Positions 6,671-21,544 of a DNA stretch of 32,000 bases are shown here, piece by piece (position 1 is the stretch's first letter; the number at the start of each line of letters is the position of its first letter). A model generated the notes under the pieces. That model made no database searches and was not told the origin of the DNA. It was given only the letters and a program-made list of their open reading frames with translations. Made by a program: the position numbers and the translations under genes. This stretch comes from Candidatus Kuenenia stuttgartensis (GTDB taxonomy: Bacteria > Planctomycetota > Brocadiia > Brocadiales > Brocadiaceae), in assembly GCF_900232105.1 (NCBI RefSeq), contig NZ_LT934425.1:2790001-2822000 (forward strand). Reading direction: 5' to 3'.

Positions 6671-6745
6671 TGTCAACGACTTTGAGGAGCAAAGGGATGC
6701 CTTTGATGCCGCGTGGGAGCTTGGAGTAAGGAATGAGAGGCAAAT

Positions 6746-6883
6746 GTAGGGTGGATGAAGCGAAGCGCATCCACCATTTCTCAGGAAGGCGGGAAATGAC
6801 AGGAAAATTACCGCTTTTCTGTGTTCCTGATATTAAATCTGGTGGATACGGCGTGAAAAGGCGCACGCCTTTATCCACCCTAC
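6746..6883 (+). repeat. REPIN (inverted REP doublet), copy 1
   Basis: The 5' REP is GTAGG-GTGGATG-aagcgaagcg-CATCCACC. The spacer carries TCAGGAA...TTCCTGA pairing. The 3' inverted REP is GGTGGATAcGGCGTG-aaaaggcg-CACGCCttTATCCACC-CTAC. Confidence 0.85.
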
Positions 6884-7024
6884 CCAAAACAAAAATAATG
6901 TCCATCAATACAAATACAACAAAAAAGAGACCACAGTCCTCTACGTTGATGTCAACGACTTTGAGGAGCAAAGGGATGCCTTTGATGCCGCGTGGGGGCC
7001 TGGAGAAAGGAATGAGAGGCAAAT

Positions 7025-7162
7025 GTAGGGTGGATGAAGCGAAGCGCATCCACCATTTCTCAGGAAGGCAGGAAATGACAGGAAAATTCCCGCTTTTCTG
7101 TGTTCCTGATATTAAATCTGGTGGATACGGCGTGAAAAGGCGCACGCCTTTATCCACCCTAC
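7025..7162 (+). repeat. REPIN (inverted REP doublet), copy 2
   Basis: Same architecture as 6746-6883, offset by 279 bp. Confidence 0.85.
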
Positions 7163-7187
7163 CCAAAACAAAAATAAGGGAATATCC

Positions 7188-7637
7188 ATGAGCGAATATC
7201 GCCGGCTCTATCGTGAACAAGGCTGGTATTTCTTTACGATTGTGACATACAATCGACAAAAAATTCTTACCCATCCTGATAACGTTACCAGATTACGACG
7301 TTCGTTCCAATATGCGATGAATAAACACACCTTTTTTATCGATGCTATTGTTGTTCTTCCTGATCATATTCACTGTATCTGGAGGTTGCCTCATGACGAT
7401 GATGATTTCTCAACACGATGGAGATTGGTTAAATGGCATTTTTCTTTGGGCATGGATACCCTCTTGACCGAAAGAGGTGAGAAGAAGGTATGGCAAAGGA
7501 GATTTTGGGAACATTTGTTGAGGAATGAAAAAGATTGGCGCTATGGGTCATTTCATGATGCTGTAAAGAGGGGATTCTATACCATAGATTGGGGTTCGCA
7601 AGAACCTGATTCCATAAAGGAAATGGATTTAGAGTAG
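7188..7637 (+). CDS. rayT: REP-associated tyrosine transposase (RAYT / TnpA_REP, IS200-like Y1 HUH family), unusually short
   Basis: The N-terminus MSEYRRLYREQGWYFFT, the HUH region VVLPDHIHCIW, and LPHDDDDFSTRWR and VWQRRFWEH..RNEKDW closely follow my recollection of E. coli TnpA_REP (YafM). The gene is flanked by GTAG-headed REPs on both sides. Confidence 0.85.
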   Translation: MSEYRRLYREQGWYFFTIVTYNRQKILTHPDNVTRLRRSFQYAMNKHTFFIDAIVVLPDHIHCIWRLPHDDDDFSTRWRLVKWHFSLGMDTLLTERGEKKVWQRRFWEHLLRNEKDWRYGSFHDAVKRGFYTIDWGSQEPDSIKEMDLE

Positions 7638-7663
7638 GATGGATGAAGCGAAGCGCATCCACC
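7634..7663 (+). repeat. REP (GTAGGATGGATG-aagcgaagcg-CATCCACC) overlapping the RAYT stop codon
   Basis: It is the same palindrome as the 5' REP of the upstream REPINs, in the same orientation. The TAG stop (7635-7637) lies inside the GTAG head. Confidence 0.85.
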
Positions 7664-7752
7664 ATAGTTTATCTCTGCCTAATCCCCTTCATACATAGTT
7701 GTTTTTTCAGAAAACTAAATTGCTATGAAATTTTTTATAGAGAGGCTGGATA

Positions 7753-8283
7753 ATGGCACGGATTTTGGCTAGAGAAAAAGAAGAAACGTCGATGGACGTA
7801 CAGGAGGTTTTTGCAGAAATTGAAGGTGCTTTTGGCATGGTTCCAAATTTGTTTAAGACCTACTCGCATTTTCCACCTTTATTGAAAGCCAACTGGAACA
7901 AGGTAAAGGCGGTAATGATGCAAGGGGGTTTGAGTAGAAAAACAAAGGAAGCTATTGCCCTTCTGGTTTCAAAGGACAATAGCTGCGCATATTGTGTGGC
8001 TGCTCACACGGCTGCCCTCAAATCCATCGGTGTGACGGAAAAAGAAATTAACATAATTGAGAGTGAGATTGAGAAATCAAAATTTACAGAGAAGGAACGA
8101 GAAATCATAACCTTTGTCAGGAAGGCGAACAAAGACCCAAATAAGATAACTGATGAAGAATTTGAAGAGCTAAGGAAGAGGGGCGCTAGTGATTCGGAAA
8201 TTGTTGAGGCACTTGGTGTAATGGAACTCTTTACAGCATTTAATAAATTCCTCGATTCTCTTAACGTGGAGATAGATTTCTGA
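7753..8283 (+). CDS. Carboxymuconolactone decarboxylase (AhpD-like) family protein
   Basis: 176 aa. The core LSRKTKEAIALLVSKDNSCAYCVAAH carries the AhpD-type CxxC. Its stop overlaps the next start (TGATG). Confidence 0.8.
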   Translation: MARILAREKEETSMDVQEVFAEIEGAFGMVPNLFKTYSHFPPLLKANWNKVKAVMMQGGLSRKTKEAIALLVSKDNSCAYCVAAHTAALKSIGVTEKEINIIESEIEKSKFTEKEREIITFVRKANKDPNKITDEEFEELRKRGASDSEIVEALGVMELFTAFNKFLDSLNVEIDF

Positions 8284-9413
8284 TGGCAATCTTAATAATC
8301 CTTTTTCTTGCTACTTGTTTTCTCTCATATTCAAATGGCGCTAATGACAACTTTAAAGGGGTAGCTACGCTCTTTGGAAGTAAGACCACGAATTATAAAT
8401 ACGCAATCTGGTGGGCAACTATTACAACATTTGCAGGTTCGCTGGCTTCCCTATTTTTTGCATACGGTCTTGTGAAGACCTTTTCTGGTAAAGGCTTGGT
8501 TCCCCAAAGCATATCCTCTGCTCCTGAATTCCTCACAGCAGTGGCGATTGGCGCTGCCATTACCGTTATGGTTGCAACGATTACAGGGTTTCCAATCTCA
8601 ACCACTCATAGCCTGACAGGCGCCCTGGTCGGCGCTGGTTTTGTAGCCGTGGGTTCACAGGTTAATTTTGCCGTTCTGGGCAGCGCCTTTTTCATGCCGC
8701 TTTTACTCAGTCCTGTTATTGCCACCGCTCTTGGCAGCGGTCTTTATATTATTTTTCGGAATATGCGTATCCGTTCCGGCATAACTAAGGAATGGTGCCT
8801 TTGTGTTGGTGAACAGAGAAAAGCAATTCCATCATGTACGCCCACTCCCGCTCTGAGTGTAAAATACGGTAACACTATCAGTGCTGCAATTGACACCGAA
8901 GAAAACTGTCAGGAAATTTACCATGGACGTTTTCTGGGTATAAATAGCCAGAAATTGCTGGATGCTTTGCATTTTTTCTCTGCCGGGGTTGTCAGCTTTG
9001 CGCGGGGTCTTAATGATACGCCAAAGATTGTGGCGCTCTTATTATTGGTTAAAGGTTTGTCGATACACTGGGGCATGCTGGCTGTTGCTGTTGGAATGGC
9101 TGCCGGCGGGCTTTTGAATGCAAGAAAAGTGGCTGAAACCATGAGTAATAAAATCACAAAATTAAACCACGGTCAGGGCTTTACAGCAAACCTTGCCACC
9201 AGTATTCTTGTAATATTTGCCACTAAGCTTGGGATGCCGGTATCTACAACACACGTATCCGTAGGCTCTCTTTTTGGCATAGGGTTAATTACAAGGCGTG
9301 CCAACATTCGCAAAGCGCTGGAAATACTTTTATCATGGTTCATAACCTTGCCTGTTGCCGCAGTATTTAGCGGCGGCACGTATTGGATATTAGGAAACTG
9401 GTTATTCAATTAA
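8283..9413 (+). CDS. PiT (PHO4) family inorganic ion transporter
   Basis: 376 aa and polytopic. It has the duplicated GANDxxK/...TTH signature (GANDNFKG ... ISTTHSLTGA ... GLNDTPK ... VSTTHVSVGS). The central loop is Cys-rich (CLCVGE..SCTP..NCQE). Confidence 0.8.
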   Translation: MAILIILFLATCFLSYSNGANDNFKGVATLFGSKTTNYKYAIWWATITTFAGSLASLFFAYGLVKTFSGKGLVPQSISSAPEFLTAVAIGAAITVMVATITGFPISTTHSLTGALVGAGFVAVGSQVNFAVLGSAFFMPLLLSPVIATALGSGLYIIFRNMRIRSGITKEWCLCVGEQRKAIPSCTPTPALSVKYGNTISAAIDTEENCQEIYHGRFLGINSQKLLDALHFFSAGVVSFARGLNDTPKIVALLLLVKGLSIHWGMLAVAVGMAAGGLLNARKVAETMSNKITKLNHGQGFTANLATSILVIFATKLGMPVSTTHVSVGSLFGIGLITRRANIRKALEILLSWFITLPVAAVFSGGTYWILGNWLFN

Positions 9414-9473
9414 TTCTTCGGAAGCGAACTTTCAAGGCTGAAACCTTGAATCATTGTAATAATTTTTAACAGA

Positions 9474-9974
9474 ATGGAGAGAAGCGTGAATAAAAAAATG
9501 TTTAAATATAGATGTTTTGCTTTTTTGTTTGCAGTGAGCCTGACTATAGCCCCGGCAATTTCTTATGCAGAAGATGCAGTCAAGACGATAAAACTTACTG
9601 AATTAAACACCTTGCTTGAGAGCAACAAAGGCAAGGTGGTGATTCTTGACCTGTGGGCAACATGGTGTCCGCCCTGCCGGAAGGAGATACCCGGTTTTAT
9701 CAGTCTTTACAAGAAATACAAGGACAAAGGCTTAGAGATCATTGGTGTTGCATTTGATGAAAATGGGCCGGAAGTTGTTCCCCCATTCATGAAAGCGATG
9801 GGCATCAATTATCCCATTTATCTTGGTGAGGGCGATATTGCCCGGAAGTATGATCTACATGCCTACCCAACAACTATTGTCTACGGAAAAGACGGCAAAG
9901 CAGCCAGCAAACATGTTGGTTACGTATCAGAAGAAGAATTCGAAGACGAACTGGGGGAGTTGTTGAAAAAGTAA
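9474..9974 (+). CDS. TlpA/ResA-family periplasmic thiol:disulfide oxidoreductase
   Basis: Signal peptide, then LDLWATWCPPCRKEIP (WCPPC active site). Confidence 0.85.
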   Translation: MERSVNKKMFKYRCFAFLFAVSLTIAPAISYAEDAVKTIKLTELNTLLESNKGKVVILDLWATWCPPCRKEIPGFISLYKKYKDKGLEIIGVAFDENGPEVVPPFMKAMGINYPIYLGEGDIARKYDLHAYPTTIVYGKDGKAASKHVGYVSEEEFEDELGELLKK

Positions 9975-10004
9975 AGAGAACGGGGCACCCGTTAGAAGTC
10001 TCTT
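9974..10004 (+). terminator. Hairpin downstream of the tlpA-like gene (weak terminator candidate)
   Basis: AAGAGAACGGG-gca-CCCGTTagaagTCTCTT. No following T-tract. Confidence 0.3.
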
Positions 10005-10009
10005 GTCAA

Positions 10010-10078
10010 GCAAAACGTCACCGAACAAAAAAATCAGCTGTCGTGCTTTTTACGGTCGGCTGCATTGCCTCGTTATGA
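10010..10078 (-). other. attC-like site of cassette 3 (last cassette)
   Basis: On the minus strand, R'' TCATAAC (10078-10072) is the exact complement of the cassette-3 start G|TTATGA. The distal box is GTTTTGC (10016-10010). The internal stems are imperfect and asymmetric. Confidence 0.45.
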
Positions 10079-10132
10079 TTTGTTTTTTAGCCTTTTTGCA
10101 TCTTCAATATCTTTTGGTCTACCTATTGCTTC

Positions 10133-10176
10133 CTTGTTTTTAATTAAATCATCACTTGTTTTTAATTAAATCATCA
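10133..10176. repeat. Perfect 22-bp tandem duplication (CTTGTTTTTAATTAAATCATCA x2)
   Basis: 10133-10154 and 10155-10176 are identical. The duplication lies at the 3' end of the minus-strand nucleotidyltransferase ORF. Confidence 0.95.
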
Positions 10177-10544
10177 ACGGACAATATATTTGGGGAAATT
10201 CCTTCGAATTTGGCTTTAATAGAGCGTCTTTTTGCATCTGCAAATTTTATATCGCCGGAAATTTCTGTTATAATGTCAATCCGGCATGGTGCAACACCAA
10301 TTTGGAATATAATTCCTTTTTCCTTAAAAGTATCTTCATTAATACCATCAAGAGGGGCACCGAATTCTACCAATGCCTTGTAAAGTTTTACGGAATTATC
10401 CTTGTCTGGTTTAACCCAAATGTCAATATCAAGAGTACTTCGAGGATAGCCATGGGCGGCTAGCGCATACGCGCCAACCAAAATATAATCTACATCATGC
10501 TTTTGTAAGATTTGTAACATTTCTTTGTAATCTTGATTTAGCAT
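10152..10544 (-). CDS. Nucleotidyltransferase-fold protein, C-terminus truncated by the 22-bp duplication
   Basis: It reads DYKEMLQILQKHDVDYILVGAYALAAHGYPRSTLDIDIWV...FQIGVAPCRIDIIT. Removing one repeat copy extends the frame to ...LIKNKEAIGRPKDIEDAKRLKNKS*, ending at 10073, which matches the family C-terminus (NK.A.GR.KD). Confidence 0.7.
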   Translation of the reverse strand: MLNQDYKEMLQILQKHDVDYILVGAYALAAHGYPRSTLDIDIWVKPDKDNSVKLYKALVEFGAPLDGINEDTFKEKGIIFQIGVAPCRIDIITEISGDIKFADAKRRSIKAKFEGISPNILSVDDLIKNK

Positions 10545-10692
10545 TTATATTTCCTTTTGTTGAAATTGCCCATAATTCTTGCGTAATATCCCAAACCATT
10601 TCTATCCGATCTTTTATAGAGGCATCGACATATTCATCATTAACAATATTTTTCATTTGAGATAATTTTACAATATTTTTATTTAGTTTCAT
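10495..10692 (-). CDS. Small protein (65 aa) upstream of and overlapping the nucleotidyltransferase gene; possible partner or antitoxin-like
   Basis: An AAGGA SD precedes the ATG. The tail ...IEMVWDITQELWA...AKSRLQRNV resembles small proteins I recall beside this nucleotidyltransferase family. It overlaps the next ORF by 50 nt in another frame. Confidence 0.5.
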   Translation of the reverse strand: MKLNKNIVKLSQMKNIVNDEYVDASIKDRIEMVWDITQELWAISTKGNINAKSRLQRNVTNLTKA

Positions 10693-10715
10693 CTTAATCC
10701 TTTTATTTTAATCAA

Positions 10716-10775
10716 TCATAACGTAGAGCTAACCGGGCACGGCACGAGAGGGAGTAGGGTTGCAGCTTAAATCCT
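10716..10775 (-). other. Degenerate attC-like site of cassette 2
   Basis: The minus-strand R' is GTTATGA (10722-10716), and there is a stem AGCTgcAACC/GGTTAGCT. No recognisable RYYYAAC box complements the cassette-2 start TTATAC. Confidence 0.3.
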
Positions 10776-10817
10776 AAATAATGGCTAAAATTTATTATAA
10801 TAACGCAATAGAAAATA

Positions 10818-11108
10818 TCAATATTTAACATTTAAGATGTGACCCTTCCCCATTCCCTTGGGAGGTTTGTCCGTATTTGGTGAGTTTCCCGTTAGTACAT
10901 GATAATTTGTCACTAAAAATATAATTTTCCCTTTTGTGCTATCTTCTAAAAGATAATAGAATCCAGTCCCTTGAGAGATAACAACATTGCCTTTAAGCAA
11001 CTGTATTGGAGTTGTAATTAAAGAAATATGTTCTATTTCTTGAGCATTTGCTTGCATAACGAACACTCCTAATATTAGGAATAATATTTTTGTAGCTAAA
11101 TTTTTCAT
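10818..11108 (-). CDS. Signal peptide plus the N-terminal fragment of a trypsin-like serine peptidase domain (96 aa, likely truncated)
   Basis: GTGFYY...IIFLVTNYHVLTG fits the catalytic-His region of trypsin-like peptidases. The rest of the roughly 200-aa domain is absent. Confidence 0.5.
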   Translation of the reverse strand: MKNLATKILFLILGVFVMQANAQEIEHISLITTPIQLLKGNVVISQGTGFYYLLEDSTKGKIIFLVTNYHVLTGNSPNTDKPPKGMGKGHILNVKY

Positions 11109-11111
11109 GCT

Positions 11112-11188
11112 GTATAACGCCTCACATCACCGGCAGCGAAAAGCAGAGTGAGGAACGAGCGGCGCTTTTTGCTGTCCGAGTGCATGTG
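11112..11188 (-). other. attC site of cassette 1 (77 bp)
   Basis: On the minus strand it reads GCCTAAC (embedding the CDF TAA stop), then AATCACATgCACtCGGaCAGC ... GCTGCCGGTGATGTGAGGC, then GTTATAC. There are 16 paired bases, and all three single-base bulges are on one arm. Confidence 0.7.
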
Positions 11189-11192
11189 ATTG

Positions 11193-11795
11193 TTAGGCCT
11201 TAGTTGATTCCAGTGCATCTGCTCGTTCTTTACTGGCTGCAGTGTAAACTTGGCGTGCAGCATCCAGATTAATGAGGAATATTGCTAGCCCTACGATCAA
11301 GTCGGGCCATGCACTTAGGGTAAGTAAGGTTATGAAGCCTGCTCCAATAATGGCAACATTAGCGAAAGCGTCATTACGCGCAGAGAGAAAAGCAGCGCGT
11401 GTAAGGCTACCGCTATGTTTGCGGTAACGAACAAGGACAAATGCACAAATAATATTAACAACCAAAGCACCACTTCCAGTAAGCGACAGGAGGGTTGCGT
11501 CTGGTGGCAATGGAATGAGAAATTTCCCCCAAGCTGTCCAAAGCGTGAAAAGCCCTGGAATTAGAAGAATTGCCGCAAGCGCCATGCCGACCATTGATCG
11601 CCGATGCAAGCTCCAGCCTAGCGCCATAAAGATTAGAATATTAACTGCTGTATCTTCAAGAAAATCGATGGAGTCTGCAAAAAGTGAAACCGAGCCTATT
11701 GAATGTGCGACAGAAAACTCAACAAAAAAGTAGCCGAAATTAAGGAGGGCTACGACAAATACTGCTCGACGGAGGAGAGAATTTTTAGCGTTCAT
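11193..11795 (-). CDS. Cation diffusion facilitator (CDF) family transporter, short form without the C-terminal cytoplasmic domain
   Basis: 200 aa with 5-6 TM helices. It has FFVEF..A...GS.SL.ADS.DFLED in TM1-2 and a second acidic/His site typical of CDF TM5. Confidence 0.75.
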   Translation of the reverse strand: MNAKNSLLRRAVFVVALLNFGYFFVEFSVAHSIGSVSLFADSIDFLEDTAVNILIFMALGWSLHRRSMVGMALAAILLIPGLFTLWTAWGKFLIPLPPDATLLSLTGSGALVVNIICAFVLVRYRKHSGSLTRAAFLSARNDAFANVAIIGAGFITLLTLSAWPDLIVGLAIFLINLDAARQVYTAASKERADALESTKA

Positions 11796-11811
11796 ATAAT
11801 GTTTTCTTGAG

Positions 11812-11902
11812 GCCTAACTATTAATATACGAAATTCCAGATTACCAAAAGCTTACAGTAACTTTGCGGGATTATAGCCGGATATTTGATGTCGGTCAAGG
11901 GA
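11812..11902 (-). other. attI region with the attI/cassette-1 junction GTTAGGC
   Basis: The minus-strand GTTAGGC (11818-11812) lies 16 nt upstream of the first cassette ATG, on the intI-proximal side of the array. The extent of attI is only inferred. Confidence 0.4.
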
Positions 11903-12112
11903 ATATAGTCAAACAAATCTGGTTTTATAAACTTAGCGGTAATTTGGCTTTTTGAAAAATGGGGGCGAAGCATTTGCCTGCGTACAGTATAACTCCTTCA
12001 ACATAGCGGGGTTGGCGTATGTACAGCATTTTACGTCTCTCTCTTATATGCAGGCAAATGCTTCGCCCCTACCCAGAATGTTTTTCGAAAAACAGATTTA
12101 TTCGACTATATT
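11903..12112. mobile_element. MITE family B, copy 1 (210 bp), between attI and intI
   Basis: The outer TIRs are ATATAGTCAAACAAATCTG and CAGATTTATTCGACTATAT. The inner arms are TTTTTGAAAAA/TTTTTCGAAAAA. The core palindrome is GGGGCGAAGCATTTGCCTGC...GCAGGCAAATGCTTCGCCCCTAC. Confidence 0.75.
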
Positions 12113-12205
12113 AGGAAAAACGTTGATACGACTTCGTATAGTCTGTATAATTCCACAAAATAAGAACTTTGTATTTTATGGAATATTTGTCCATTTAAGG
12201 ATTTT

Positions 12206-13507
12206 ATGTTGAATAATATACTACCTGAATATCAAAAATATTTAATTTTCAATAAACTTGTTCCTGAAAAAAATGTCCAGTTTTACGCCTTGTGGGTGAG
12301 TAAGTTTCTGTCGTTTTCAAACAAAAATGAGGCTTTTACCGTTGATATCAAGATTGAGAAGTTTTTGGAATCTCTATCCAATGATGAAGAAATAAGAGAC
12401 TGGCAAATAGAGCAGGCCAAGACAGCATTACATTTATATGTTAATAATTTTCTTGAAGGCGACAAATCGTTAATGGATCCAAACTACCAGAAGAATAACC
12501 ATAGTAAATTTCCCGACTTTAATGCTGTTATTGATAAATTACGAGAATTAATACGTTTAAAACATTATTCATACAGCACGGAGCAAACTTATATTGAATG
12601 GGCAAAAAAATTTCATACCTTTATTTTAGATTCGAAGGGAATCAAATTTGAAATAGATACATTGGATTCAAATGATGTCCGTAATTATTTAAGTTATCTG
12701 GCATTGAAGCAAAGAGTGTCGTCTTCAACTCAGAATCAGGCATTCAGCGCGTTGTTGTTCTTATTTAAAAATGTGTTGAATGTTGAATTGGGTGATTTAG
12801 GAGATACTGTCAGGGCGAAACGTGGGACAAAATTGCCGGTGGTTTTGGCGGTGGAAGATGTGCAGGAATTATTTAAACAGGTAAAAGGAAGGAATCTTCT
12901 TATTATTCAGTTGATATACGGTTCCGGGCTCAGGCTTATGGAACTGGCCAGATTGAGGGTTAAGGATATTGATTTTGATTCGAATATGATTTTTGTACGC
13001 AGCGGCAAGGGCGATAAGGACAGGTCAACCATGCTTCCTGAATTTGTTAAACCGGAGCTGAAATTGCATCTGGATAAGGTCAAAGTACTGCATAATGAGG
13101 ATGTGGAAAAAGGATACGGTGAGGTATATTTGCCGAACGCGTTAGATAGGAAATATCCCAACGCGCCGAAAGACTGGGGATGGCAGTATGTTTTTCCTTC
13201 CGAAAGGCTTTCCGTTGATCTGAGAAGCGGGAAAATCAGGCGGCATCATTTAAGTGATAAGGCGATTCAGAATATGGTAAAAGGGGCAGTTAAAAAAGCA
13301 GGGATTGTCAAAAATGCGTCTGTTCATACCTTACGGCACAGTTTTGCGACCCATCTTTTAATGAACGGGGTTAATATCCGGGAGGTTCAGGACTTACTTG
13401 GGCATAAGAATCTCGAGACTACGATGATTTATACGCATGTAATGCGGGATATGTCGAATGCGCCGAAAAGCCCGCTGGATAATCTCTATGGGAAAAAAAA
13501 GCTATAA
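12206..13507 (+). CDS. intI: Integron integrase IntI (tyrosine recombinase) with a roughly 110-aa N-terminal extension
   Basis: It carries the IntI-specific additional domain ALDRKYPNAPKDWGWQYVFPS. Catalytic residues are present: GLRLMEL (R), HTLRHSFATH (HxxR), LLGH and MIYTHV (Y). Confidence 0.9.
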   Translation: MLNNILPEYQKYLIFNKLVPEKNVQFYALWVSKFLSFSNKNEAFTVDIKIEKFLESLSNDEEIRDWQIEQAKTALHLYVNNFLEGDKSLMDPNYQKNNHSKFPDFNAVIDKLRELIRLKHYSYSTEQTYIEWAKKFHTFILDSKGIKFEIDTLDSNDVRNYLSYLALKQRVSSSTQNQAFSALLFLFKNVLNVELGDLGDTVRAKRGTKLPVVLAVEDVQELFKQVKGRNLLIIQLIYGSGLRLMELARLRVKDIDFDSNMIFVRSGKGDKDRSTMLPEFVKPELKLHLDKVKVLHNEDVEKGYGEVYLPNALDRKYPNAPKDWGWQYVFPSERLSVDLRSGKIRRHHLSDKAIQNMVKGAVKKAGIVKNASVHTLRHSFATHLLMNGVNIREVQDLLGHKNLETTMIYTHVMRDMSNAPKSPLDNLYGKKKL

Positions 13508-13653
13508 CAAAATTGATAAACGGGTGCAACCTCTGTATTATGTAAATCGACTATGCTGCAATAGGAAATCGGAGATTCCGGGGACACCATACTTAATTTT
13601 AGGAGGTTAGAACCATTAATACGCCAAAGGTTTATTTAAAACAGCTCGAAACG

Positions 13654-15432
13654 TTGTGGTTTCAGGTAACAGGCACTCATTGTAACCTACAGTGCGCCCA
13701 TTGCTTTATCTCCTGCGGCCCCAAAAATACAACGCATGAGATGATAACCATTGATACAATACAGTGGTACTTGAAAGAGGCTGCAATGCTGGGTGTAAAA
13801 GAATTTTACTTTACCGGAGGCGAGCCTTTTTTACATCCTCATATAGTAGATATTTTACAAGAGTCACTAAAATACGGTCAGACCACAGTCCTTTCAAATG
13901 GCACCTTAATAACAGAGGATATTTCACAAACGCTAGCCCAGGTATCTCGCACATCCAAACATAAATTAGCATTCAGGGTAAGCCTGGAAAGTTTTATAGA
14001 GGAAGAAAATGACCAGATTCGTGGAGAGGGAGCATTTAAGATGGCAATCAGGGGTATTCAATCCCTGACACATGCTGGTTTTAATCCGATTATTACGGTA
14101 GCCGATTGGTCGAAATATGGAAAGTTTACGAAAGAAACGGCAGAAGAACTTCAGTTGCTTGAACGTTCTTTGAATATCCCACAGTTAAGACTCAAAAAAC
14201 TACCTTTGGTTCTCCTGGGACGATGCGCCGAATTTGTCAGACCTTACGATGAGGGCGAACGGGTTACCGATCAGTGCTTTGATAATTACCCGATGGACAA
14301 TCTCCAATGTACTACCAGCCGTATCGTGACCAGTAAAGGGGTCTTTGTCTGTCCAATACTTATTGACGATCCCAAAGCATGGATGGGACGGACTTTGCAG
14401 GAATCCCTCAATCCATATACGATGGAATCGCCCGCTTGTTATACCTGCAGAACAACGGGATTAACCTGTAAAAATGAAGCGGATGATGCTAAGGATGCGG
14501 TCAGGAAATCGGTTAATGAATTTTATGCGGCGGCCGCCATTCAGCCCCAAAAGGAACTATGCTGTCCCACCAGTTATAATGCGGCGGATATATCACACAT
14601 TCCCCTGGAGGCGCTGAATATCTCATATGGATGTGGTAGTCCAGTGACACAAGCCAACATCAAATCTGGGGAGAACGTGTTGGATTTGGGATCCGGCGGT
14701 GGAATAGACTGTTTTATTGCGGCAAAAATGGCCGGAGAACAGGGACAAATTATCGGGGTAGACATGACAGACGAAATGCTGAGAAACGCCAATGCCACAA
14801 GAGAGATTGTTGCGCGGAACCTTGGTTATAATAACGTCCGTTTTATGAAGGGGTTTCTGGAAGAAATACCGGTTACGGATGAATGTGTCGATTTGGTAAC
14901 ATCCAATTGTGTCATTAATTTGTCAGCACAAAAGGAGAAGGTCTTTCAGGAGATATTCAGGGTACTAAAGGCGGGCGGCAGATTTGTGATATCTGATATA
15001 GTTTCCGACAGGGAAGTTCCTGTGTCTATGAAACAGGATAAAAAATTGTGGGGCGAGTGCATTTCCGGGGCAATTACAGAAGCAGAGTTTTTTAATATAA
15101 CAAGGAAGATTGGTTTCTACGGACTGGAAATAGTAAATCGTTATCTCTATAAAGAAGTGGACGGCTTTACGTTTTATTCTATAACTGCGCGGGGACACAA
15201 ATTTAAGAAATCAAAGGAGTGCGTGTACACCGGCCAATATGCAATCTATAAAGGGCCATTCAGTAATGTCTCAGATGATGACGGCCATACATATCCGGTA
15301 GGAACGCCAATAGAAATTTGCATTGATACGGCATGGAAACTCTCAAACCCTCCATATGAAGGGATGTTTATACTGTCCGGTGGTATGCAAAGCAAAGATG
15401 TAAAGACAGCATGCGGGCCAAAATGCTGTTAA
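13654..15432 (+). CDS. Radical SAM domain fused to an ArsM-like SAM-dependent (arsenite) methyltransferase domain
   Basis: The N-terminus has CNLQCAHC (CX3CX2C) and FTGGEPF. The middle has a Cys-rich segment (VCPILIDD, ACYTCRTTGLTC). The C-terminus has LCCPTSY, SYGCGSP, VLDLGSGGGID, SNCVINL and WGECISGA. The start is uncertain: the frame is open from 13603 and a strong AGGAGG lies at 13601-13606. Confidence 0.8.
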   Translation: MWFQVTGTHCNLQCAHCFISCGPKNTTHEMITIDTIQWYLKEAAMLGVKEFYFTGGEPFLHPHIVDILQESLKYGQTTVLSNGTLITEDISQTLAQVSRTSKHKLAFRVSLESFIEEENDQIRGEGAFKMAIRGIQSLTHAGFNPIITVADWSKYGKFTKETAEELQLLERSLNIPQLRLKKLPLVLLGRCAEFVRPYDEGERVTDQCFDNYPMDNLQCTTSRIVTSKGVFVCPILIDDPKAWMGRTLQESLNPYTMESPACYTCRTTGLTCKNEADDAKDAVRKSVNEFYAAAAIQPQKELCCPTSYNAADISHIPLEALNISYGCGSPVTQANIKSGENVLDLGSGGGIDCFIAAKMAGEQGQIIGVDMTDEMLRNANATREIVARNLGYNNVRFMKGFLEEIPVTDECVDLVTSNCVINLSAQKEKVFQEIFRVLKAGGRFVISDIVSDREVPVSMKQDKKLWGECISGAITEAEFFNITRKIGFYGLEIVNRYLYKEVDGFTFYSITARGHKFKKSKECVYTGQYAIYKGPFSNVSDDDGHTYPVGTPIEICIDTAWKLSNPPYEGMFILSGGMQSKDVKTACGPKCC

Positions 15433-15613: not shown

Positions 15614-15829
15614 ATGACTAATGCAAACAAAACTAAGCAGTGCTTTCTTGAACTGTTAAATCCCCATAAGGATTTACTGTACAAATACGGCAAACACATA
15701 ATACGGAACGTGAATGATGCTGAAGATGCATTGCAAACAACGATTATGAACGCCTACAAGACTCTTGATATATTTATGGACAATAGGTTCCGGCGGGCTT
15801 TTTTTCAAGGGACGCAGGGAAAAGGCTGA
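15614..15829 (+). pseudogene. N-terminal fragment of an ECF-type sigma-70 factor
   Basis: FLELLNPHKDLLYKYGKHIIRNVNDAEDALQTTIMNAYKTLDIF fits sigma region 2.1-2.2. The remainder of the protein is missing. Confidence 0.5.
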
Positions 15830-16204
15830 CGTCAGATACCGGTCATCTGAAATACCATTGGCAAAGGTACAGCAGGATATCATACAAGATATAATCGTTG
15901 TCCATACACAGGTACATATCAGGCAGGAACAAATAACGATTGCAAAACAAGGTGTTATGGATGCGGAGAAATCTCTCAGGCTGAATGAAAACCGGCTGAA
16001 ACATGGTATGGGATTGCCCCTTGAGGTATACTACAGGCCGAAGACGCCTTTATACAAGCAAGAAGGGATCGTATCCCGGCAATTATCGATTATAACAAGG
16101 CGCAATACACACTTTTTGTAAGTGTGGGAAACAGACCCTGGCGCCGGCATACCTCACTTGAAAGTCTTTGCAATCCGAACGGATGCTTTCCCGATTTTTT
16201 GTAA
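15798..16204 (+). pseudogene. C-terminal fragment of a TolC-like outer-membrane efflux protein, frameshifted
   Basis: ...IAKQGVMDAEKSLRLNENRLKHGMGLPLEV is followed by a frame change at about 16029 to LQAEDAFIQARRDRIPAIIDYNKAQYTLFVSVGNRP...*, with the stop at 16202-16204. Confidence 0.55.
16088..16176 (+). repeat. Direct repeat copy 1 (72 + 17 bp), the 3' end of the tolC-like fragment
   Basis: GATTATAACAAGGCGCAATACACACTTTTTGTAAGTGTGGGAAACAGACCCTGGCGCCGGCATACCTCACTT followed by GAAAGTCTTTGCAATCC recurs at 17177-17278. Confidence 0.95.
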
Positions 16205-16247: not shown

Positions 16248-16466
16248 ATTCAATACCATGTCCCTACAATAAATATCTCATCAATAATTAAGTATGGCGT
16301 CCCCTGAATATGATCACAAAAATTGACATTCAGGTTTTTATTGACAAAGCTTTTTAAAAAAATTACCCTTGTGCAAGGATGAACGAAGCAAAGCCGACTC
16401 TGCATTAAAGATAATTTTTGTAACTATTCAGCGTAATTTATTAAACTACCGGAGATCAGAGCGCAA

Positions 16467-16709: not shown

Positions 16710-16931
16710 ATGATAAAAAAATTAGCCAAATTTAAACCCCGGTATGTTCTCGATAAGAAAGGTAAAAAAATTGCTGTTGTTTTTGATCTTCATGAATATC
16801 AATCTATTATAGAGTTTATTGAAGATGTCGAAGACTCCAGAGACCTATTAAAAGCGGAATTGAACGCCACCGACTTTACACCGTACGAGGAATTCCGGAA
16901 AAAATGGCTAAACCACAAGGTTATCAGATAA
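16710..16931 (+). CDS. Type II antitoxin (Phd/YefM- or RelB-like)
   Basis: 73 aa. The pattern ...KKIAVVFDLHEYQSIIEFIEDVEDSRDLLKA is typical of antitoxin N-domains. It overlaps the toxin gene by 28 nt. Confidence 0.65.
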   Translation: MIKKLAKFKPRYVLDKKGKKIAVVFDLHEYQSIIEFIEDVEDSRDLLKAELNATDFTPYEEFRKKWLNHKVIR

Positions 16932-17173
16932 TTCTTGAAAAGAGGGCTAAGAAGGAAGCTGAGAACATTCCTCCGCCACAGAGACACAGAATTGACAAAG
17001 CCATTAGTTCTCTTTCGGTTAATCCAAGACCTGTCTCATGTAAAAAAATTACACAAAAAGAAGGTTATCGCATTCGTGCCGGAAACTATAGGATTCTTTA
17101 TACGATAGATGATAAAGCAAAGATAATCGTTATTTACCGCATAAAAGTAAAAGGCAAGGATACGTATAAATAA
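16904..17173 (+). CDS. RelE/ParE-family type II toxin
   Basis: 89 aa. It shows L..NPRP...KK...KEGYRIRAGNYRILYTIDD...I.V..I..KGKDTY. Confidence 0.8.
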   Translation: MAKPQGYQIILEKRAKKEAENIPPPQRHRIDKAISSLSVNPRPVSCKKITQKEGYRIRAGNYRILYTIDDKAKIIVIYRIKVKGKDTYK

Positions 17174-17176
17174 ATT

Positions 17177-17278
17177 GATTATAACAAGGCGCAATACACA
17201 CTTTTTGTAAGTGTGGGAAACAGACCCTGGCGCCGGCATACCTCACTTAAAACACGCACCTGAAAGTCTTTGCAATCC
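17177..17278 (+). repeat. Direct repeat copy 2 (72 bp + 13-nt insert + 17 bp)
   Basis: It is identical to 16088-16159 and 16160-16176 except for the inserted AAAACACGCACCT (17249-17261). Confidence 0.95.
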
Positions 17279-17331
17279 AGACACTTGTATTGGCAGCAAT
17301 TCTGAAACATATGAGAGTAAAGGCCGCGCAT

Positions 17332-18074
17332 ATGAAAAAAACTTTATTTATATTTCTCGCCATATTCACAACCATATCTGCGGTGAATTTAAGAAATGTA
17401 TCTTCCGATGCTGAGACAAAGGAAATGAAACATAGCTCCGCGCTCAACGATGCCGGAAAGAAACACAACAGGCTTATCCATGAAAAGAGTCCGTATTTAC
17501 TGCAGCATGCAGACAACCCCGTAGACTGGTATGCCTGGGGGCCTGAGGCCTTTGAAAAAGCCAGGAAGGAAAACAAACCCATCTTCCTTTCCATTGGTTA
17601 TTCAACCTGTCACTGGTGCCACGTAATGGCGCACGAATCATTCGAAGATCCGGAGGTTGCCAGGTTAATGAATGAGGTATTTATCTGTATTAAGGTAGAT
17701 AGAGAAGAGCGGCCTGACATAGACAATATTTATATGCGTGTCTGCCAGATGATGACGGGCAGTGGCGGCTGGCCGCTTACTATTGTCATGACGCCTGACA
17801 AAAAACCCTTTTATGCCGGCACATATATCCCGAAGAAAAGCTATGGACGGATAGGCATGCTGGACCTGGTACCCCGTATCAAAGAATTATGGAACATACA
17901 ACACGCTGATATTCAAAAATCAGCCAATCTGATTACGGCCAGTCTTGGCCAGTTTTCTCATGACCCTTCAGAGGCAAGGCTTGACGCCTCTACCTTAAAG
18001 GCTGCATATGAGCTGCTCGCCAGGCGCTTTAGTGAGCAGCATGGCGGTTTCAGCACTTCGCCAAAATTCCCTAG
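17332..18074 (+). pseudogene. DUF255/YyaL thioredoxin-domain protein, N-terminal part (interrupted by an IS)
   Basis: A signal-like [12 protein letters not shown] is followed by [47 protein letters not shown]. The ATG at 17332 is preferred over the one at 17290. Confidence 0.85.
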
Positions 18075-20082
18075 CGTGAGTTTATCACGAAATAAGGTGT
18101 AAGACAAAGACATCAAGTTGCAATCCAATGATTTGTATCGGGTTGCGACTTTTTTTGTCTAAAAAATTATGTATACACTGAATAATACTATATTTATATT
18201 GCATTATATGCCTGTATATACTATTATACACGGAGTATTAATCTATTACGTATACACTAACAACTAATAGCCATGGCTACCATTCAATCTAAAAACTCCA
18301 GAGGTTATAAATATTGGTATATTGTCGAATCGCGGCGCGTTAACGGCAAGCCCAGGCCCATCGTCCTGGCCTATCTTGGCAAGGCAGACGATTTATTAAA
18401 ACAACTGCAAGGTCTTACCGAAAAATTACGGCTCAAATCTTATTCACATGGCGCGGTAGCCGCATTGCTAAGTGTGGCCAATGCCCTGGACGTCCCTTCC
18501 GTGATTAATAAATATATAAAGTCGCCACGGCAGTATTGTGCTAAAAAACCTGTTCGAAATAATCTGACCGCCGGAAGTACCCTCTTGTTGGGTGCCGTGG
18601 GGAGAGTGTGTGTGCCTACCAGCAAAAGAGGATGGTGGGATTGGGCAAAGACGACTACTGCCGAATACTTACTCAGACACAGCTTGAGTAAAATAGACAG
18701 TCAGCATTTCTGGGATTTGATGGATGCACTTCCTGAAGAATCCATTGCAGAAATCGAGCGCGAATTAATTGAAAAGACATTTAAAACATACAACCTTCAA
18801 AGCGACACACTGTTTTTTGATACAACCAATTTTTTCACGTATATCGACACAACTAATCTGCGATGCACTATTGCCCGGCGGGGGAAAAACAAACAAAAGC
18901 GATACGATCTCAGGCAGGTCGGGTTGGCGATGGTCGTTACACGTAACGACATGATACCGTTGTTTCACCATACCTATCAGGGGAACATGGCGGATGCAAA
19001 GGTGTTCAGCGCGGTTCTTGAGACGATAAAAGACAGGATGACCGGATTAGGTTTCGACAGCAAAAAGCACACTATTGTTTTTGATCGTGGAAACAATTCC
19101 ATGGACAATATGGCTATTGTAGAGAGATTGGCATTGCATTACGTTGGAGCGCTTACACCGTATCATCACAAGCAGTTGGTAGGGGATGCCATGTGTAATT
19201 TCAGGGAATATGACGTTGACGGCAGTAAGATACAGGTGTACCATGACAAACGGGTTATTTGGGGGCAGGAAAGAACCGTTGTCGTATTTATTTCCGAGAA
19301 ATTAAAGGTTGGGCAATTAAGGGGAATGTCTCAGTCTCTGGAAAAGGCAGAACATCAGTTAAAGCTCTTACAGCAGCATCTGTGTAATCCAAAGGGAAAG
19401 ATGCGGGACAAAGAGGGTCTGGAGGATACGATAAGAAGTGTAGTGAAATGTCAATTTGCGAAGGATGTTATCGATTGGTCGTTAAAAGAGGTATCTGAAG
19501 GCAAGTTTCAATTGAATTTTTCAATCGACCAGAAAAAGCTCGAAGAAATAGAAGGGGAACTGGGGTTCAGGATTCTTATGACAGACCATCACGATTGGGA
19601 TACCGCGGACATTATAAAAGCCTACTATGGGCAATCAAAAATTGAACATGCCTTTAGAAATCTCAAGAACCCCTATCACCTTGCTTTAAAACCGCAATTT
19701 CACTGGACGGATCAGAAAATCAGGGTGCATTTTTTTATTTGCGTCCTCGGATACCTAATGGCGGCGATTGTGTGGTATCAGGCAAAAGCGCACGCACAAT
19801 TTAGTGGAACGTTAGATACCCTGTTAGACACCCTTAATAATATAAGGCTTTCTGCTATGCTTGAAGAAACAAAGGCCAGAGGGAGAGTTAAGGCTACCTA
19901 CAAATTGGAAGAAATGTCCGACAAGGAATCTCTGTTGATGAATGCGTTAGGCATTATGGATTTCCACAAACATCGGCTGAAACTTCAAGGACTCAGTGTA
20001 TACAATTGATGTTGTGCTTAACGCATTGACTGTATTTATGTTACGTTGCTTCATGCCTTATTTTGTGATAAACTCACGCTAG
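18071..20082 (+). mobile_element. IS element (IS1634/IS4-superfamily-like), about 2.0 kb
   Basis: The 23-bp IRs are CGTGAGTTTATCACGAAATAAGG (18075-18097) and CCTTATTTTGTGATAAACTCACG (20056-20078), with 1 mismatch. Both ends abut CTAG, which is either a 4-bp TSD or part of the IR. Confidence 0.9.
18273..20009 (+). CDS. DDE transposase, IS1634-family-like (578 aa)
   Basis: It is the single long ORF between the IRs. The N-terminus ...KYWYIVESRRVNGKPRPIVLAYLGK resembles IS1634-group transposases, from memory. Confidence 0.8.
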   Translation: MATIQSKNSRGYKYWYIVESRRVNGKPRPIVLAYLGKADDLLKQLQGLTEKLRLKSYSHGAVAALLSVANALDVPSVINKYIKSPRQYCAKKPVRNNLTAGSTLLLGAVGRVCVPTSKRGWWDWAKTTTAEYLLRHSLSKIDSQHFWDLMDALPEESIAEIERELIEKTFKTYNLQSDTLFFDTTNFFTYIDTTNLRCTIARRGKNKQKRYDLRQVGLAMVVTRNDMIPLFHHTYQGNMADAKVFSAVLETIKDRMTGLGFDSKKHTIVFDRGNNSMDNMAIVERLALHYVGALTPYHHKQLVGDAMCNFREYDVDGSKIQVYHDKRVIWGQERTVVVFISEKLKVGQLRGMSQSLEKAEHQLKLLQQHLCNPKGKMRDKEGLEDTIRSVVKCQFAKDVIDWSLKEVSEGKFQLNFSIDQKKLEEIEGELGFRILMTDHHDWDTADIIKAYYGQSKIEHAFRNLKNPYHLALKPQFHWTDQKIRVHFFICVLGYLMAAIVWYQAKAHAQFSGTLDTLLDTLNNIRLSAMLEETKARGRVKATYKLEEMSDKESLLMNALGIMDFHKHRLKLQGLSVYN

Positions 20083-21544
20083 CCCCCAAAACCTTCTCTT
20101 CTTACTGCGCTACTGGAAGAGTACGGGCGAAGGGAATGCCCTTAGGATGGTGGTCAAAACCCTCCATTCCATGCGGAAAGGCGGCATATACGACCACATC
20201 GGATATGGTTTTCATCGATATTCTACTGACCCCGAATGGCTCGTCCCCCATTTTGAAAAAATGCTTTATGATCAGGCAATGCTGGCAATGGCATATACAG
20301 AGGCATATCTGGCAACGGGGAGGAAAGAATTCGGTGAGACCGCAAAAGAGATATTTGCATACGTTATGCGTGACATGACAGACCCGAAAGGAGGATTCTG
20401 CTCTGCCGAGGATGCTGACAGCGAGGGTAAGGAGGGGAAGTTTTATGTCTGGACAGAAGAGGAGATTCGCCATGCCCTCAAAGAAGATGATGCAAACCTG
20501 ATTATCAATGTATTTAACATCGAAAAGGCAGGTAATTTCAAAGATGAAATAGCCGGCAGGAATACGGGAGACAACATCCTGCATCTGAAAAAAAGCCTTG
20601 CAGAAATAGCCTTAGAGAATAAGACATCATTGGATGAACTCAAAGAACGTGTCGAAACTGCCAGAAGGAAATTGTTTGCTGTGCGCAGTAAAAGAATTCG
20701 TCCGCACAAGGATGATAAAATATTGACAGACTGGAACGGGCTAATGATAGCTGCCCTGGCAAAAGGGGCGCAGGCATTTGATGCGCCGGAATATTTGGCT
20801 GCGGCAAAACGTGCGGCAGACTTTATTCTTTCGGACATGCGCAGGCAGGATGGAAGATTGCTGCACCGTTACCGTGGCGGCCAGGCAGGCATACCGGCCT
20901 TTGCAGATGATTACGCCTTCTTTATATGGGGACTACTTGAACTCTATGAAACAAACTTCAATGTAAATTATCTCCGGACAGCGCTGGACCTGAACAGTGA
21001 CATGATAAAACATTTCTGGGATAATCAAAACGGTGGTTTTTATTTTACTGCGGATGATGCAGAGGACCTTATCGTTCGGCAGAAAGAAGTCTACGACGGC
21101 GCCATACCATCCGGGAATTCAGTAGCGGCCCTGAACTTATTCAGGCTTGCGAGAATCACCGCAGACCCTGAGCTTGAAGAGAAGGCAAATAAAACAATGC
21201 TCGCCTTTTCCACGGAGGTGAAAAAAATGCCTGCCGGTTACACACAGATGATGATAGGGCTTAGTTTCGGAATAGGCCCTGCTTATGAGATTATCATAGC
21301 AGGCAACCCGCGCGCAGTGGACACCAGGGACATGCTTAATACTCTCAGAAGACATTTTATACCCAATAAGATCGTACTCTTAAGACCGACAGATGAAGAA
21401 ACCCCGGAGATCACCAGAATCGCCAAATTCACAGAGCATCAATCAGGCATAGACGGCAAAGCTACCGCTTATATCTGCCGTGATTACACATGTAAGATGC
21501 CTGTGACAGATACGAAAGAAATGCTTAAACTGCTCAAAGAATAG
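20079..21544 (+). pseudogene. DUF255/YyaL thioredoxin-domain protein, C-terminal (alpha/alpha)6 part
   Basis: From 20081 it reads SPQNLLFLLRYWKSTGEGNALRMVVKTLHSMRKGGIYDHIGYGFHRYSTDPEWLVPHFEKMLYDQA... It is in frame with 17332-18074 once the IS and one CTAG are removed. Confidence 0.85.

Follow-up and report, generated by a model that had tools for sequence, protein, structure and literature searches.

To our knowledge, only two radical S-adenosylmethionine (SAM) enzymes are known to form arsenic-carbon bonds: ArsS, which transfers an adenosyl group, and ArsL, which transfers an aminocarboxypropyl group. ArsS, the TIGR04167 radical SAM enzyme of the arsenosugar pathway, adds 5'-deoxyadenosyl to dimethylarsenite. 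In ArsL (NF040542), the radical SAM enzyme of the arsinothricin (AST) pathway, a C-terminal cysteine tail, RCCLKC, binds As(III). Partnership of a radical SAM enzyme with the As(III) methyltransferase ArsM is already known from both. Here we analyzed a 32,000-nt stretch of Candidatus Kuenenia stuttgartensis DNA (NZ_LT934425.1, positions 2,790,001 to 2,822,000; hereafter the window), in which one gene codes for a radical SAM domain followed by an ArsM-type domain. The new points are the covalent fusion, a radical SAM family outside the two known ones, and a recurrent link to PiT or Pst phosphate transporters. The gene probably codes for an undescribed enzyme for arsenic-carbon compounds in anaerobic bacteria. 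Full-text literature searches returned neither a radical SAM-ArsM fusion nor complex organoarsenicals in anammox bacteria, although absence there is no proof.

A radical SAM domain and an ArsM-type domain in one polypeptide

The first-pass annotation, made from the sequence alone, had described positions 13603-15432 as a single-polypeptide fusion of a radical SAM enzyme and an ArsM-like methyltransferase. Translation of 13501-15432 confirmed a single intact frame, open from 13603 to a TAA stop at 15430-15432, and the Pfam matches of both halves, like the NCBIfam and structure matches of the C-terminal half, were far above chance. The motifs it had quoted (CNLQCAHC, GGEP, a second cysteine group, LCC, VLDLGSGGGID, SNCVINL and GECISGA) were all located (Table 1). 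The AlphaFold2 model of the whole fusion had a mean predicted local distance difference test (pLDDT) score of 85.4.

The C-terminal half was matched by Methyltransf_31 in Pfam (aa 349-488; E 1.8e-35, 122 bits). In NCBIfam it scored 241.6 bits (E 1.1e-71) with the arsenite methyltransferase model NF008823, narrowly under the cutoff of 263, 222 bits with the arsinothricin ArsM model (cutoff 500) and 167 bits with the arsenosugar ArsM model (cutoff 400). All six top matches were arsenic-methyltransferase or close models, and UbiE/MenG reached only about 55 bits. Among solved structures it matched CrArsM (5evj, E 3e-42, chain residues 19-329), CmArsM (4fr0/4kw7, E 1e-37, residues 51-337) and 8xt7, and the alignment continued through the third, C-terminal ArsM domain. 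The four arsenic-binding cysteine positions of ArsM were aligned, and they were invariant in 50 full-length homologues. By these comparisons, the C-terminal half is a genuine domain of the ArsM type rather than a generic methyltransferase like UbiE/COQ5. The last residues, 591-605, were predicted to be disordered (pLDDT below 50) and end in CGPKCC; by its likeness to the RCCLKC tail of ArsL, this tail may shuttle arsenic.

In the N-terminal half, Pfam detected Radical_SAM (PF04055) at aa 20-160 with an E value of 1.5e-15 and 58.2 bits, against a gathering score of 29.5. Because the GGEP and CX3CX2C motifs are invariant among the homologues, true radical SAM turnover can be argued. In the second cysteine group, four of the five cysteines were invariant and C285 was nearly so in the 50 homologues. 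The pattern C232-x9-G-x3-C246...C275-x2-C278-x6-C285 fits the twitch/SPASM class, and standalone homologues of about 290 aa stop directly after the CX2CX6C motif. Pfam gave nothing for aa 156-302 even at E 10, neither DUF3641 (PF12345) nor SPASM (PF13186). The AlphaFold model of the domain (pLDDT 80.8) had its best Foldseek matches in SkfB, BlsE, SuiB, MoaA, EpeE, anSME and PqqE. The matches extended to about 310 columns, with E values from 2e-13 to 1e-7 for the first six of these enzymes; those with SkfB, BlsE, SuiB and anSME spanned about 280-310 columns, even though the Pfam SPASM profile was silent. No NCBIfam family was above its cutoff for this half, the top matches being the Rv1681 family (104.8 bits against a cutoff of 380), WgkB, ScmF, the ArsS model and NirJ2. 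Clustering at 50% gave 77 representatives of the family with E values up to 1e-30.

As for the extent of the gene, the stop and the open frame stood as annotated, and the start did not: a TAG stop occupies 13600-13602, and the codon that follows it, at 13603, is no start codon. There are two candidates, ATT at 13615, lying 8 nt past a perfect AGGAGG, and TTG at 13654, the start given by the open reading frame (ORF) listing. We compared 13601-13675 of the window with orthologues from loci L001, L003, L009, L010, L012, L014, L015, L017 and L021. The AGGAGG-8 nt-ATT arrangement was kept in 10/10 Brocadiaceae relatives, and the first 60 nt or so were nearly invariant as DNA despite a protein identity of only 76-85%. 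ATG occurred among the compared 5' ends only in L001, where the window has ACG. The residues ahead of the TTG, LKQLET, were conserved family-wide. Because the Shine-Dalgarno sequence and ATT are kept and the DNA is nearly invariant, the conserved 5' end points to ATT as a non-canonical start and/or to regulatory constraint there.

Table 1. Features of the fusion gene and of its neighbors in the window. Residues are numbered from the ATT at 13615, which gives a protein of 605 aa.
Feature	Position	Strand	Basis or remark
Radical SAM-ArsM fusion coding sequence, 605 aa from ATT	13615..15432	+	frame open from 13603; alternative start TTG 13654
Shine-Dalgarno sequence AGGAGG	13601..13606	+	read in sequence; kept in Brocadiaceae relatives
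Radical SAM domain (aa 1-290) of the uncurated 'TLWFQ' family, probably twitch/SPASM class	13615..14484	+	PF04055; Foldseek
CNLQCAHC, CX3CX2C (C23, C27, C30), [4Fe-4S] ligands	13681..13704	+	invariant in 50 homologues
Invariant C34, after CX3CX2C	13714-13716	+	homologue alignment
GGEP SAM-binding motif	13816..13827	+	invariant in homologues
Second cysteine group C232-x13-C246...C275-x2-C278-x6-C285	14308..14469	+	candidate twitch/SPASM-like auxiliary site or arsenic-binding tail
ArsM-type As(III) SAM methyltransferase domain, all three ArsM subdomains	14500..15384	+	NF008823; structure alignments
LCC (C316/C317), equivalent of CmArsM Cys44	14557..14565	+	aligned to CrArsM 'SAC'; invariant
YGCG (C340), equivalent of CmArsM Cys72	14626..14637	+	alignment; invariant
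VLDLGSGGGID, SAM-binding motif I	14677..14709	+	Pfam, structure alignment
SNCVINL (C432), equivalent of CmArsM Cys174	14902..14922	+	structure alignment
GECISGA (C482), equivalent of CmArsM Cys224	15052..15072	+	structure alignment
CGPKCC tail (C600, C604, C605), candidate arsenic-shuttling arm	15412..15429	+	nearly invariant
AhpD/CMD-family peroxidase-related gene, conserved cluster partner	7753..8283	+	TIGR01926 104 bits, above cutoff
PHO4/PiT-family phosphate (arsenate) transporter, conserved cluster partner	8283..9413	+	PF01384 226 bits
TlpA/ResA-like thiol-disulfide oxidoreductase, conserved cluster partner	9474..9974	+	homologues beside fusion in relatives
Strain-specific insertion of about 3.6 kb between fusion and cluster, outside the system	9980..13594	.	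blastn: no L001 counterpart

Spread, architectures and neighborhoods among relatives

A search of 5.8 billion proteins returned at least 90 full-length homologues (600-650 aa), from Candidatus Brocadiaceae and Kuenenia at 69-88% identity and from Thermodesulfobacteriota at about 50%. The whole architecture and all catalytic cysteines were kept in the 50 that were aligned, down to 49% identity. Their current names are only "methyltransferase domain-containing protein" or "arsenite methyltransferase".

The two domains were also found joined in the reverse order, with ArsM preceding the same TLWFQ...ACYTC...C radical SAM domain (P0086 and P0100; further permuted representatives are P0242, P0262 and P0376), and as adjacent separate genes in Acidobacteriota and Thermoanaerobaculia (L075, L077, L078, L085 and L087). 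The existence of the fusion in both orders argues for a tight functional coupling of the domains. A third architecture of about 850 aa (P0096-P0120) consists of a PqqD-like domain (PF05402 in P0096-P0098), a radical SAM/SPASM domain of another kind, and an ArsM half that is 54-61% identical to that of the window, including the terminal CC. Proteins of this type occurred in Scalindua, Elusimicrobia, Acidobacteriota, Nitrospinota and Wallbacteria (loci L026-L055, L064 and L066), and PHO4 or TIGR04282/3 genes flanked 18/28 of their loci, more often than for the window-type fusion.

Standalone members of the radical SAM family, about 290 aa long, were common in Nitrospinaceae, Ignavibacteria and other groups. 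In Nitrospinaceae (L094, from Nitrospinales, at 6737-9536, and L056-L072), their neighbors were an AhpC/TSA-like gene and a gene for a weakly radical-SAM-like protein of 375 aa. An apparent split into radical SAM and methyltransferase genes in L095 was not used as evidence; it is probably an assembly frameshift, because the PHO4 gene of this locus is also in three pieces. A match on a Marinobacter plasmid was unannotated, in two pieces and had no useful context.

The genes around the fusion in relatives connect it to the transferase families TIGR04282 and TIGR04283. In L009, whose fusion is 85% identical to that of the window, the next gene is a fused TIGR04282+TIGR04283 gene (195.9 bits with TIGR04282, cutoff 134, and 194 bits with TIGR04283, cutoff 182). 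In L007, with a fusion about 49% identical, the next two genes belong to TIGR04283 (209.7 bits) and TIGR04282 (204 bits), both above the curated cutoffs, and then come a gene of the sterol desaturase family and one of VTT/DedA type; before the fusion, and in one direction, lie phoB/R, a phosphate porin gene, pstSCAB, phoU and a cupin gene. The same companions are found in an annotated arsS cluster of a Thiodictyon plasmid, which carries GT2, sterol desaturase, arsS, TIGR04282 and thioredoxin-family genes. TIGR04282/3 genes neighbored the fusion in L001, L007, L009, L022 and many loci of the architecture of about 850 aa (type B; the window-type fusion is type A). The fusion loci with TIGR04282/3 genes showed no additional, separate radical SAM gene resembling arsS.

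For a count, we took non-redundant loci with a length of 6 kb or more and searched them with hidden Markov models (HMMs) built from these genes. TIGR04282/3-like genes lay within 10 kb at 3/14 type A, 14/28 type B, 3/5 split-gene and 3/25 standalone radical SAM loci. The corresponding numbers for PHO4/PiT or Pst genes were 5/14 (window included), 14/28, 1/5 and 0/25. PHO4 or PstSCAB was thus beside the fusion in 19/42 type A and B loci, and the transporter gene often abuts or overlaps the fusion gene. Genes for thiol redox proteins (TlpA-like, DsbD and AhpD-like) also recur beside it.

The cultured Roseomonas haemaphysalidis has, on plasmid p546-1 (L097, 4986-11946), a gene whose product is related to the radical SAM domain over its full length, at 31% identity. 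It stands in an operon-like row with genes for a TIGR04282 transferase, a DUF547 protein, a second radical SAM protein, a phosphate/phosphite/phosphonate (Phn-type) ATP-binding cassette transporter and a metallophosphoesterase, and no ArsM gene was found within 8 kb of it. This locus could be a tractable system for the radical SAM family.

Proposed function and competing explanations

We propose, with moderate confidence and on the strength of sequence comparison, that the fusion is a bifunctional enzyme of organoarsenical biosynthesis, in which ArsM is combined with radical formation of a C-As bond and the radical SAM domain has taken the role of ArsS. On its substrate, order of reactions, transferred radical and tail, we infer the following. 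The ArsM half would bind As(III) on C316/317, C340, C432 and C482 and methylate it with SAM, probably to dimethylarsenite. The radical SAM half would reductively cleave a second SAM and add a carbon radical to the trivalent arsenic; the likeliest radical would be 5'-deoxyadenosyl, as in ArsS, and the product a dimethylarsinoyl-nucleoside of the kind from which arsenosugars start. Methylation would come before, or possibly after, formation of the radical C-As bond. In the fusion, the trivalent methylated arsenical, a toxic intermediate, would be handed straight between the active sites, and the CGPxCC tail and/or the CX2CX6C motif may serve as its carrier. In strict anaerobes, where oxidation by oxygen is not available, such channeling of trivalent methylarsenicals would make methylation non-toxic.

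A wider version of this proposal is possible but doubtful: the TLWFQ family would be the third radical SAM family to form As-C bonds, and together with a PiT or Pst importer and TIGR04282/3 transferases it would let anammox bacteria and other strict anaerobes take up arsenate on purpose and build compounds of the arsenosugar or arsenolipid type. Because the L007 gene follows phoBR-pstSCAB-phoU in one direction, they may be built under phosphate limitation. If true, the fusion would offer a compact, expressible model of how a toxic trivalent arsenical is handed over from a nucleophilic methyltransferase to a radical enzyme, and the adjacent phosphate transporters would tie organoarsenical synthesis to phosphate/arsenate uptake. 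It would also place complex organoarsenical synthesis in anoxic bacteria of the nitrogen and sulfur cycles (anammox bacteria, Nitrospinota, Thermodesulfobacteriota and Acidobacteriota), groups from which we know of no report of arsenosugars or arsenolipids.

The idea of an organoarsenical module had already been put forward in the first-pass annotation. It gained from the TIGR04282/3 genes downstream of the fusion in relatives and from the reverse-order and adjacent-gene pairs, and we also counted in its favor that a different radical SAM/SPASM domain is joined to the same ArsM subclade in the proteins of about 850 aa. A specific kinship of the radical SAM half with ArsS or ArsL, which the annotation had cited as known partners of ArsM, was not supported. 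With the ArsS model TIGR04167 this half scored 73.6 bits against a cutoff of 300, over model positions 5-148 of 303 only. BLASTP against the Thiodictyon plasmid ArsS, annotated by the NCBI Prokaryotic Genome Annotation Pipeline, gave 30% identity, confined to the first 155 residues. In hhalign, the family profile matched the ArsS profile with 98.6% probability over the N-terminal 151 columns only, and the C-terminal halves of the two showed no similarity (probability below 1%). True ArsS proteins all carry PF12345 in Pfam. A global MAFFT alignment did pair all five C-terminal cysteines with those of ArsS, both proteins ending in CYxC-x6/7-C, but hhalign gave this no support, and we treated it as a resemblance rather than homology. 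Membership in ArsS was therefore ruled out by the NCBIfam score, BLASTP and hhalign, the N-terminal core alone being similar. Membership in ArsL was rejected as well: the RCCLKC tail is absent, and NF040542 was not within the 25 best of 46 NCBIfam matches. From the profiles and the predicted fold, the radical SAM half is best assigned to an uncurated, unstudied family of the twitch/SPASM class outside ArsS and ArsL.

The limited match with ArsS weighs against our proposal, and so do several other results. In sequence and fold, the radical SAM half resembles peptide maturases and MoaA just as closely as it does ArsS, and it sits among SPASM/twitch enzymes (SkfB, BlsE and MoaA), a grouping with maturases that the first-pass annotation had named as speaking against its idea. 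About half of the type A loci lack both TIGR04282/3 genes and phosphate transporters, and tblastn with the L007 and L009 proteins found no TIGR04282/3 gene in the window. The name "arsenosugar biosynthesis glycosyltransferase" borne by these two families presumably reflects association with ArsS, not experiment. The standalone members in Nitrospinaceae (L094 and L056-L072) have no ArsM or phosphate transporter gene within 10 kb, and because of this the function of the radical SAM family may not always need ArsM in cis. Lastly, neither ATG nor GTG is present at the 5' end of the fusion gene. We judged that the genomic context outweighs the SPASM/twitch grouping as a refutation.

Among the alternatives, an ArsM that only detoxifies is the most probable, but still unlikely. 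Here the radical SAM domain would form no C-As bond; it would supply electrons, for example for re-reduction of ArsM disulfides or pentavalent intermediates, or it would cleave or demethylate organoarsenicals. The complete set of ArsM features fits this explanation, as do the recurring TlpA-like, DsbD and AhpD-like neighbors, the absence of ArsS- or ArsL-specific similarity past the core, and the many type A loci without glycosyltransferases. The invariant GGEP and CX3CX2C motifs, however, argue for true radical SAM turnover, and detoxification leaves unexplained the link to TIGR04282/3 and the partners common to canonical arsS clusters.

It is rather improbable that the substrate is not arsenic at all, with the ArsM-like domain methylating another metalloid (Sb, Se, Te) or a peptide or small-molecule thiol, and a radical SAM domain that acts as a maturase-type enzyme. 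The nearest folds and HMMs do include the peptide maturases SkfB, SuiB, WgkB and ScmF, and the sister architecture of about 850 aa has a peptide-binding PqqD-like domain at its N-terminus. Against this stand the conservation of all four As(III)-binding cysteines and of the whole ArsM body, and a context of PiT/Pst and arsenosugar-type transferase genes that points to a group 15 oxyanion; no precursor peptide gene was noticed.

We consider it very unlikely that the enzyme works like ArsL, transferring the 3-amino-3-carboxypropyl group of SAM to As(III) before methylation by ArsM to give an arsinothricin-like compound. The ArsM half did score higher with the arsinothricin model than with the arsenosugar model, the ArsM gene beside a standalone family member in L077 reached 333.6 bits with the former, and the C-terminal tail is rich in cysteine as in ArsL. 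The tail is nevertheless not RCCLKC, the ArsL model was outside the 25 best radical SAM families, and the neighbors are arsenosugar-type glycosyltransferase genes rather than an AST cluster.

Finally, an integron cassette or mobile resistance gene captured by an integrase, or an inactive remnant, is highly improbable. In favor of it, an integrase gene is the immediate upstream neighbor and has the same orientation, a repeat search showed the fusion to be bracketed by a 24-nt inverted repeat, a canonical start codon is missing, and gene fragments and insertion sequence (IS) elements fill the region downstream. Against it, the ORF is intact with its Shine-Dalgarno sequence and ATT kept in the relatives; the integrase adjoins the fusion in this strain and 99%-identical contigs only, whereas relatives have glycosyltransferase genes in its place; and a simple scan, made without a covariance model, found 0 attC-like R''/R' core pairs in the whole window. 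The cassette was rejected.

The locus in this strain and comparison with known systems

In the window, the fusion is separated from its conserved partners by the strain-specific insertion (Table 1). The AhpD/CMD-family gene also gave a weak match to TIGR04169, "arsenosugar biosynthesis-associated peroxidase-like protein". Its pairing with PHO4 recurs in L003, and the upstream genes of the window match those of L003 and L014; homologues of the TlpA/ResA-like gene adjoin the fusion in L001, L009, L014, L017 and L095. The insertion carries two hypothetical ORFs, a CDF transporter gene (11193-11795, minus strand) and the integron integrase gene (12206-13507, plus strand), whose product scored 426 bits with TIGR02249 (cutoff 265) and has an N-terminal extension of about 107 aa. 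When the integrase was compared with all loci by tblastn, the window and the short contigs L010-L013 alone had it beside the fusion, and it was absent from L001, L009, L014, L015, L017 and L021. The first-pass annotation had correctly noted the integrase directly upstream and metal and thiol genes nearby, which the CDF transporter and thiol-redox genes bear out. Because the integron and CDF neighbors are strain-specific and lie on the insertion, they are incidental to the fusion. The annotation had also reported no ars operon, and likewise we saw no arsR, arsB or arsC among the ORFs scanned in the window, small ORFs having been only partly scanned. An Rfam scan of the window gave zero matches.

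Several further observations concern mobile and decayed sequences. The inverted repeat that brackets the fusion (13575-13598 and 16286-16309) is 92% complementary, with the core GGGGACACCATACTTAATT. The same motif also occurs upstream of the L015 and L021 orthologues and by an ISAZ013-type transposase gene downstream in L001, and the repeat may be a solo IS end. An IS200-like Y1 transposase gene lies at 7188-7637. Downstream of the fusion is a patch of decayed genes with an ECF-sigma-like N-terminal piece at 15614-15829 and, at 15765-16121, a TolC-like fragment. A 79-nt sequence is present as a direct repeat with 97% identity (16085-16163 and 17174-17252); it codes for the C-terminus of a TolC-like fragment (..IDYNKAQYTLFVSVGN) and flanks a RelB/ParE-like toxin-antitoxin pair (16710-17173). 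Because of this, it seems that a decayed gene for outer-membrane efflux received the toxin-antitoxin module by insertion or recombined with it. Farther on (17290-21544), a DUF255/thioredoxin-like gene (17290-18102) is broken by an IS with a DDE_Tnp_1 transposase gene (18273-20009), its GlcNAc-2-epimerase-like remainder lying at 20147-21544. A type II restriction-modification pair consists of a gene at 26930-28510 for an N6/N4 DNA methylase and one at 28511-29293 for a TdeIII-family endonuclease. The cluster of the fusion is partly degraded in this strain, and the fusion ORF itself is intact.

Of the described systems, ArsS with ArsM is like the fusion in pairing a radical SAM enzyme with ArsM, in the TIGR04282/3, sterol-desaturase-family and thioredoxin-family companions that fusion relatives have, in an N-terminal radical SAM core of about 30% identity, and in the CYxC-x6/7-C end. 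It differs in that the window protein is one polypeptide which is no ArsS orthologue, has no DUF3641 and shows no similarity in the C-terminal part of the radical SAM half, and in that PiT/Pst transporters are characteristic neighbors of the fusion family. ArsL with ArsM offers the precedent of an As(III)-binding cysteine tail and of a radical C-As bond followed by ArsM methylation, and the fusion scores 222 bits with the AST ArsM model; unlike ArsL, the fusion has neither the RCCLKC tail nor a specific ArsL match, and its neighbors differ.

The NCBIfam-curated ArsM/AhpD-domain and ArsM/DUF2284-domain selenoproteins (NF041537 and NF041536) are similar in joining ArsM to a partner of redox or Fe-S type, and an AhpD-like gene neighbors the fusion in the window. 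Here, in contrast, the partner is a radical SAM domain, there is no selenocysteine, and the scores are far under the cutoffs of those families. The twitch/SPASM enzymes (SkfB 6efn, BlsE 7vob, SuiB, MoaA, EpeE and anSME) match the predicted fold best, over nearly the full domain, and have the CX9GX3C...CX2C cysteine pattern in common with it, whereas identity is only 15-20%, Pfam SPASM is silent, and the context is one of metalloids rather than of peptides or nucleotides. Lastly, the uncharacterized proteins of about 850 aa have an ArsM half of the same subclade, the terminal CC and PHO4 and TIGR04282/3 neighbors in common with the fusion, and differ from it in a longer, different radical SAM part with a full SPASM domain and in the PqqD-like domain at the N-terminus.

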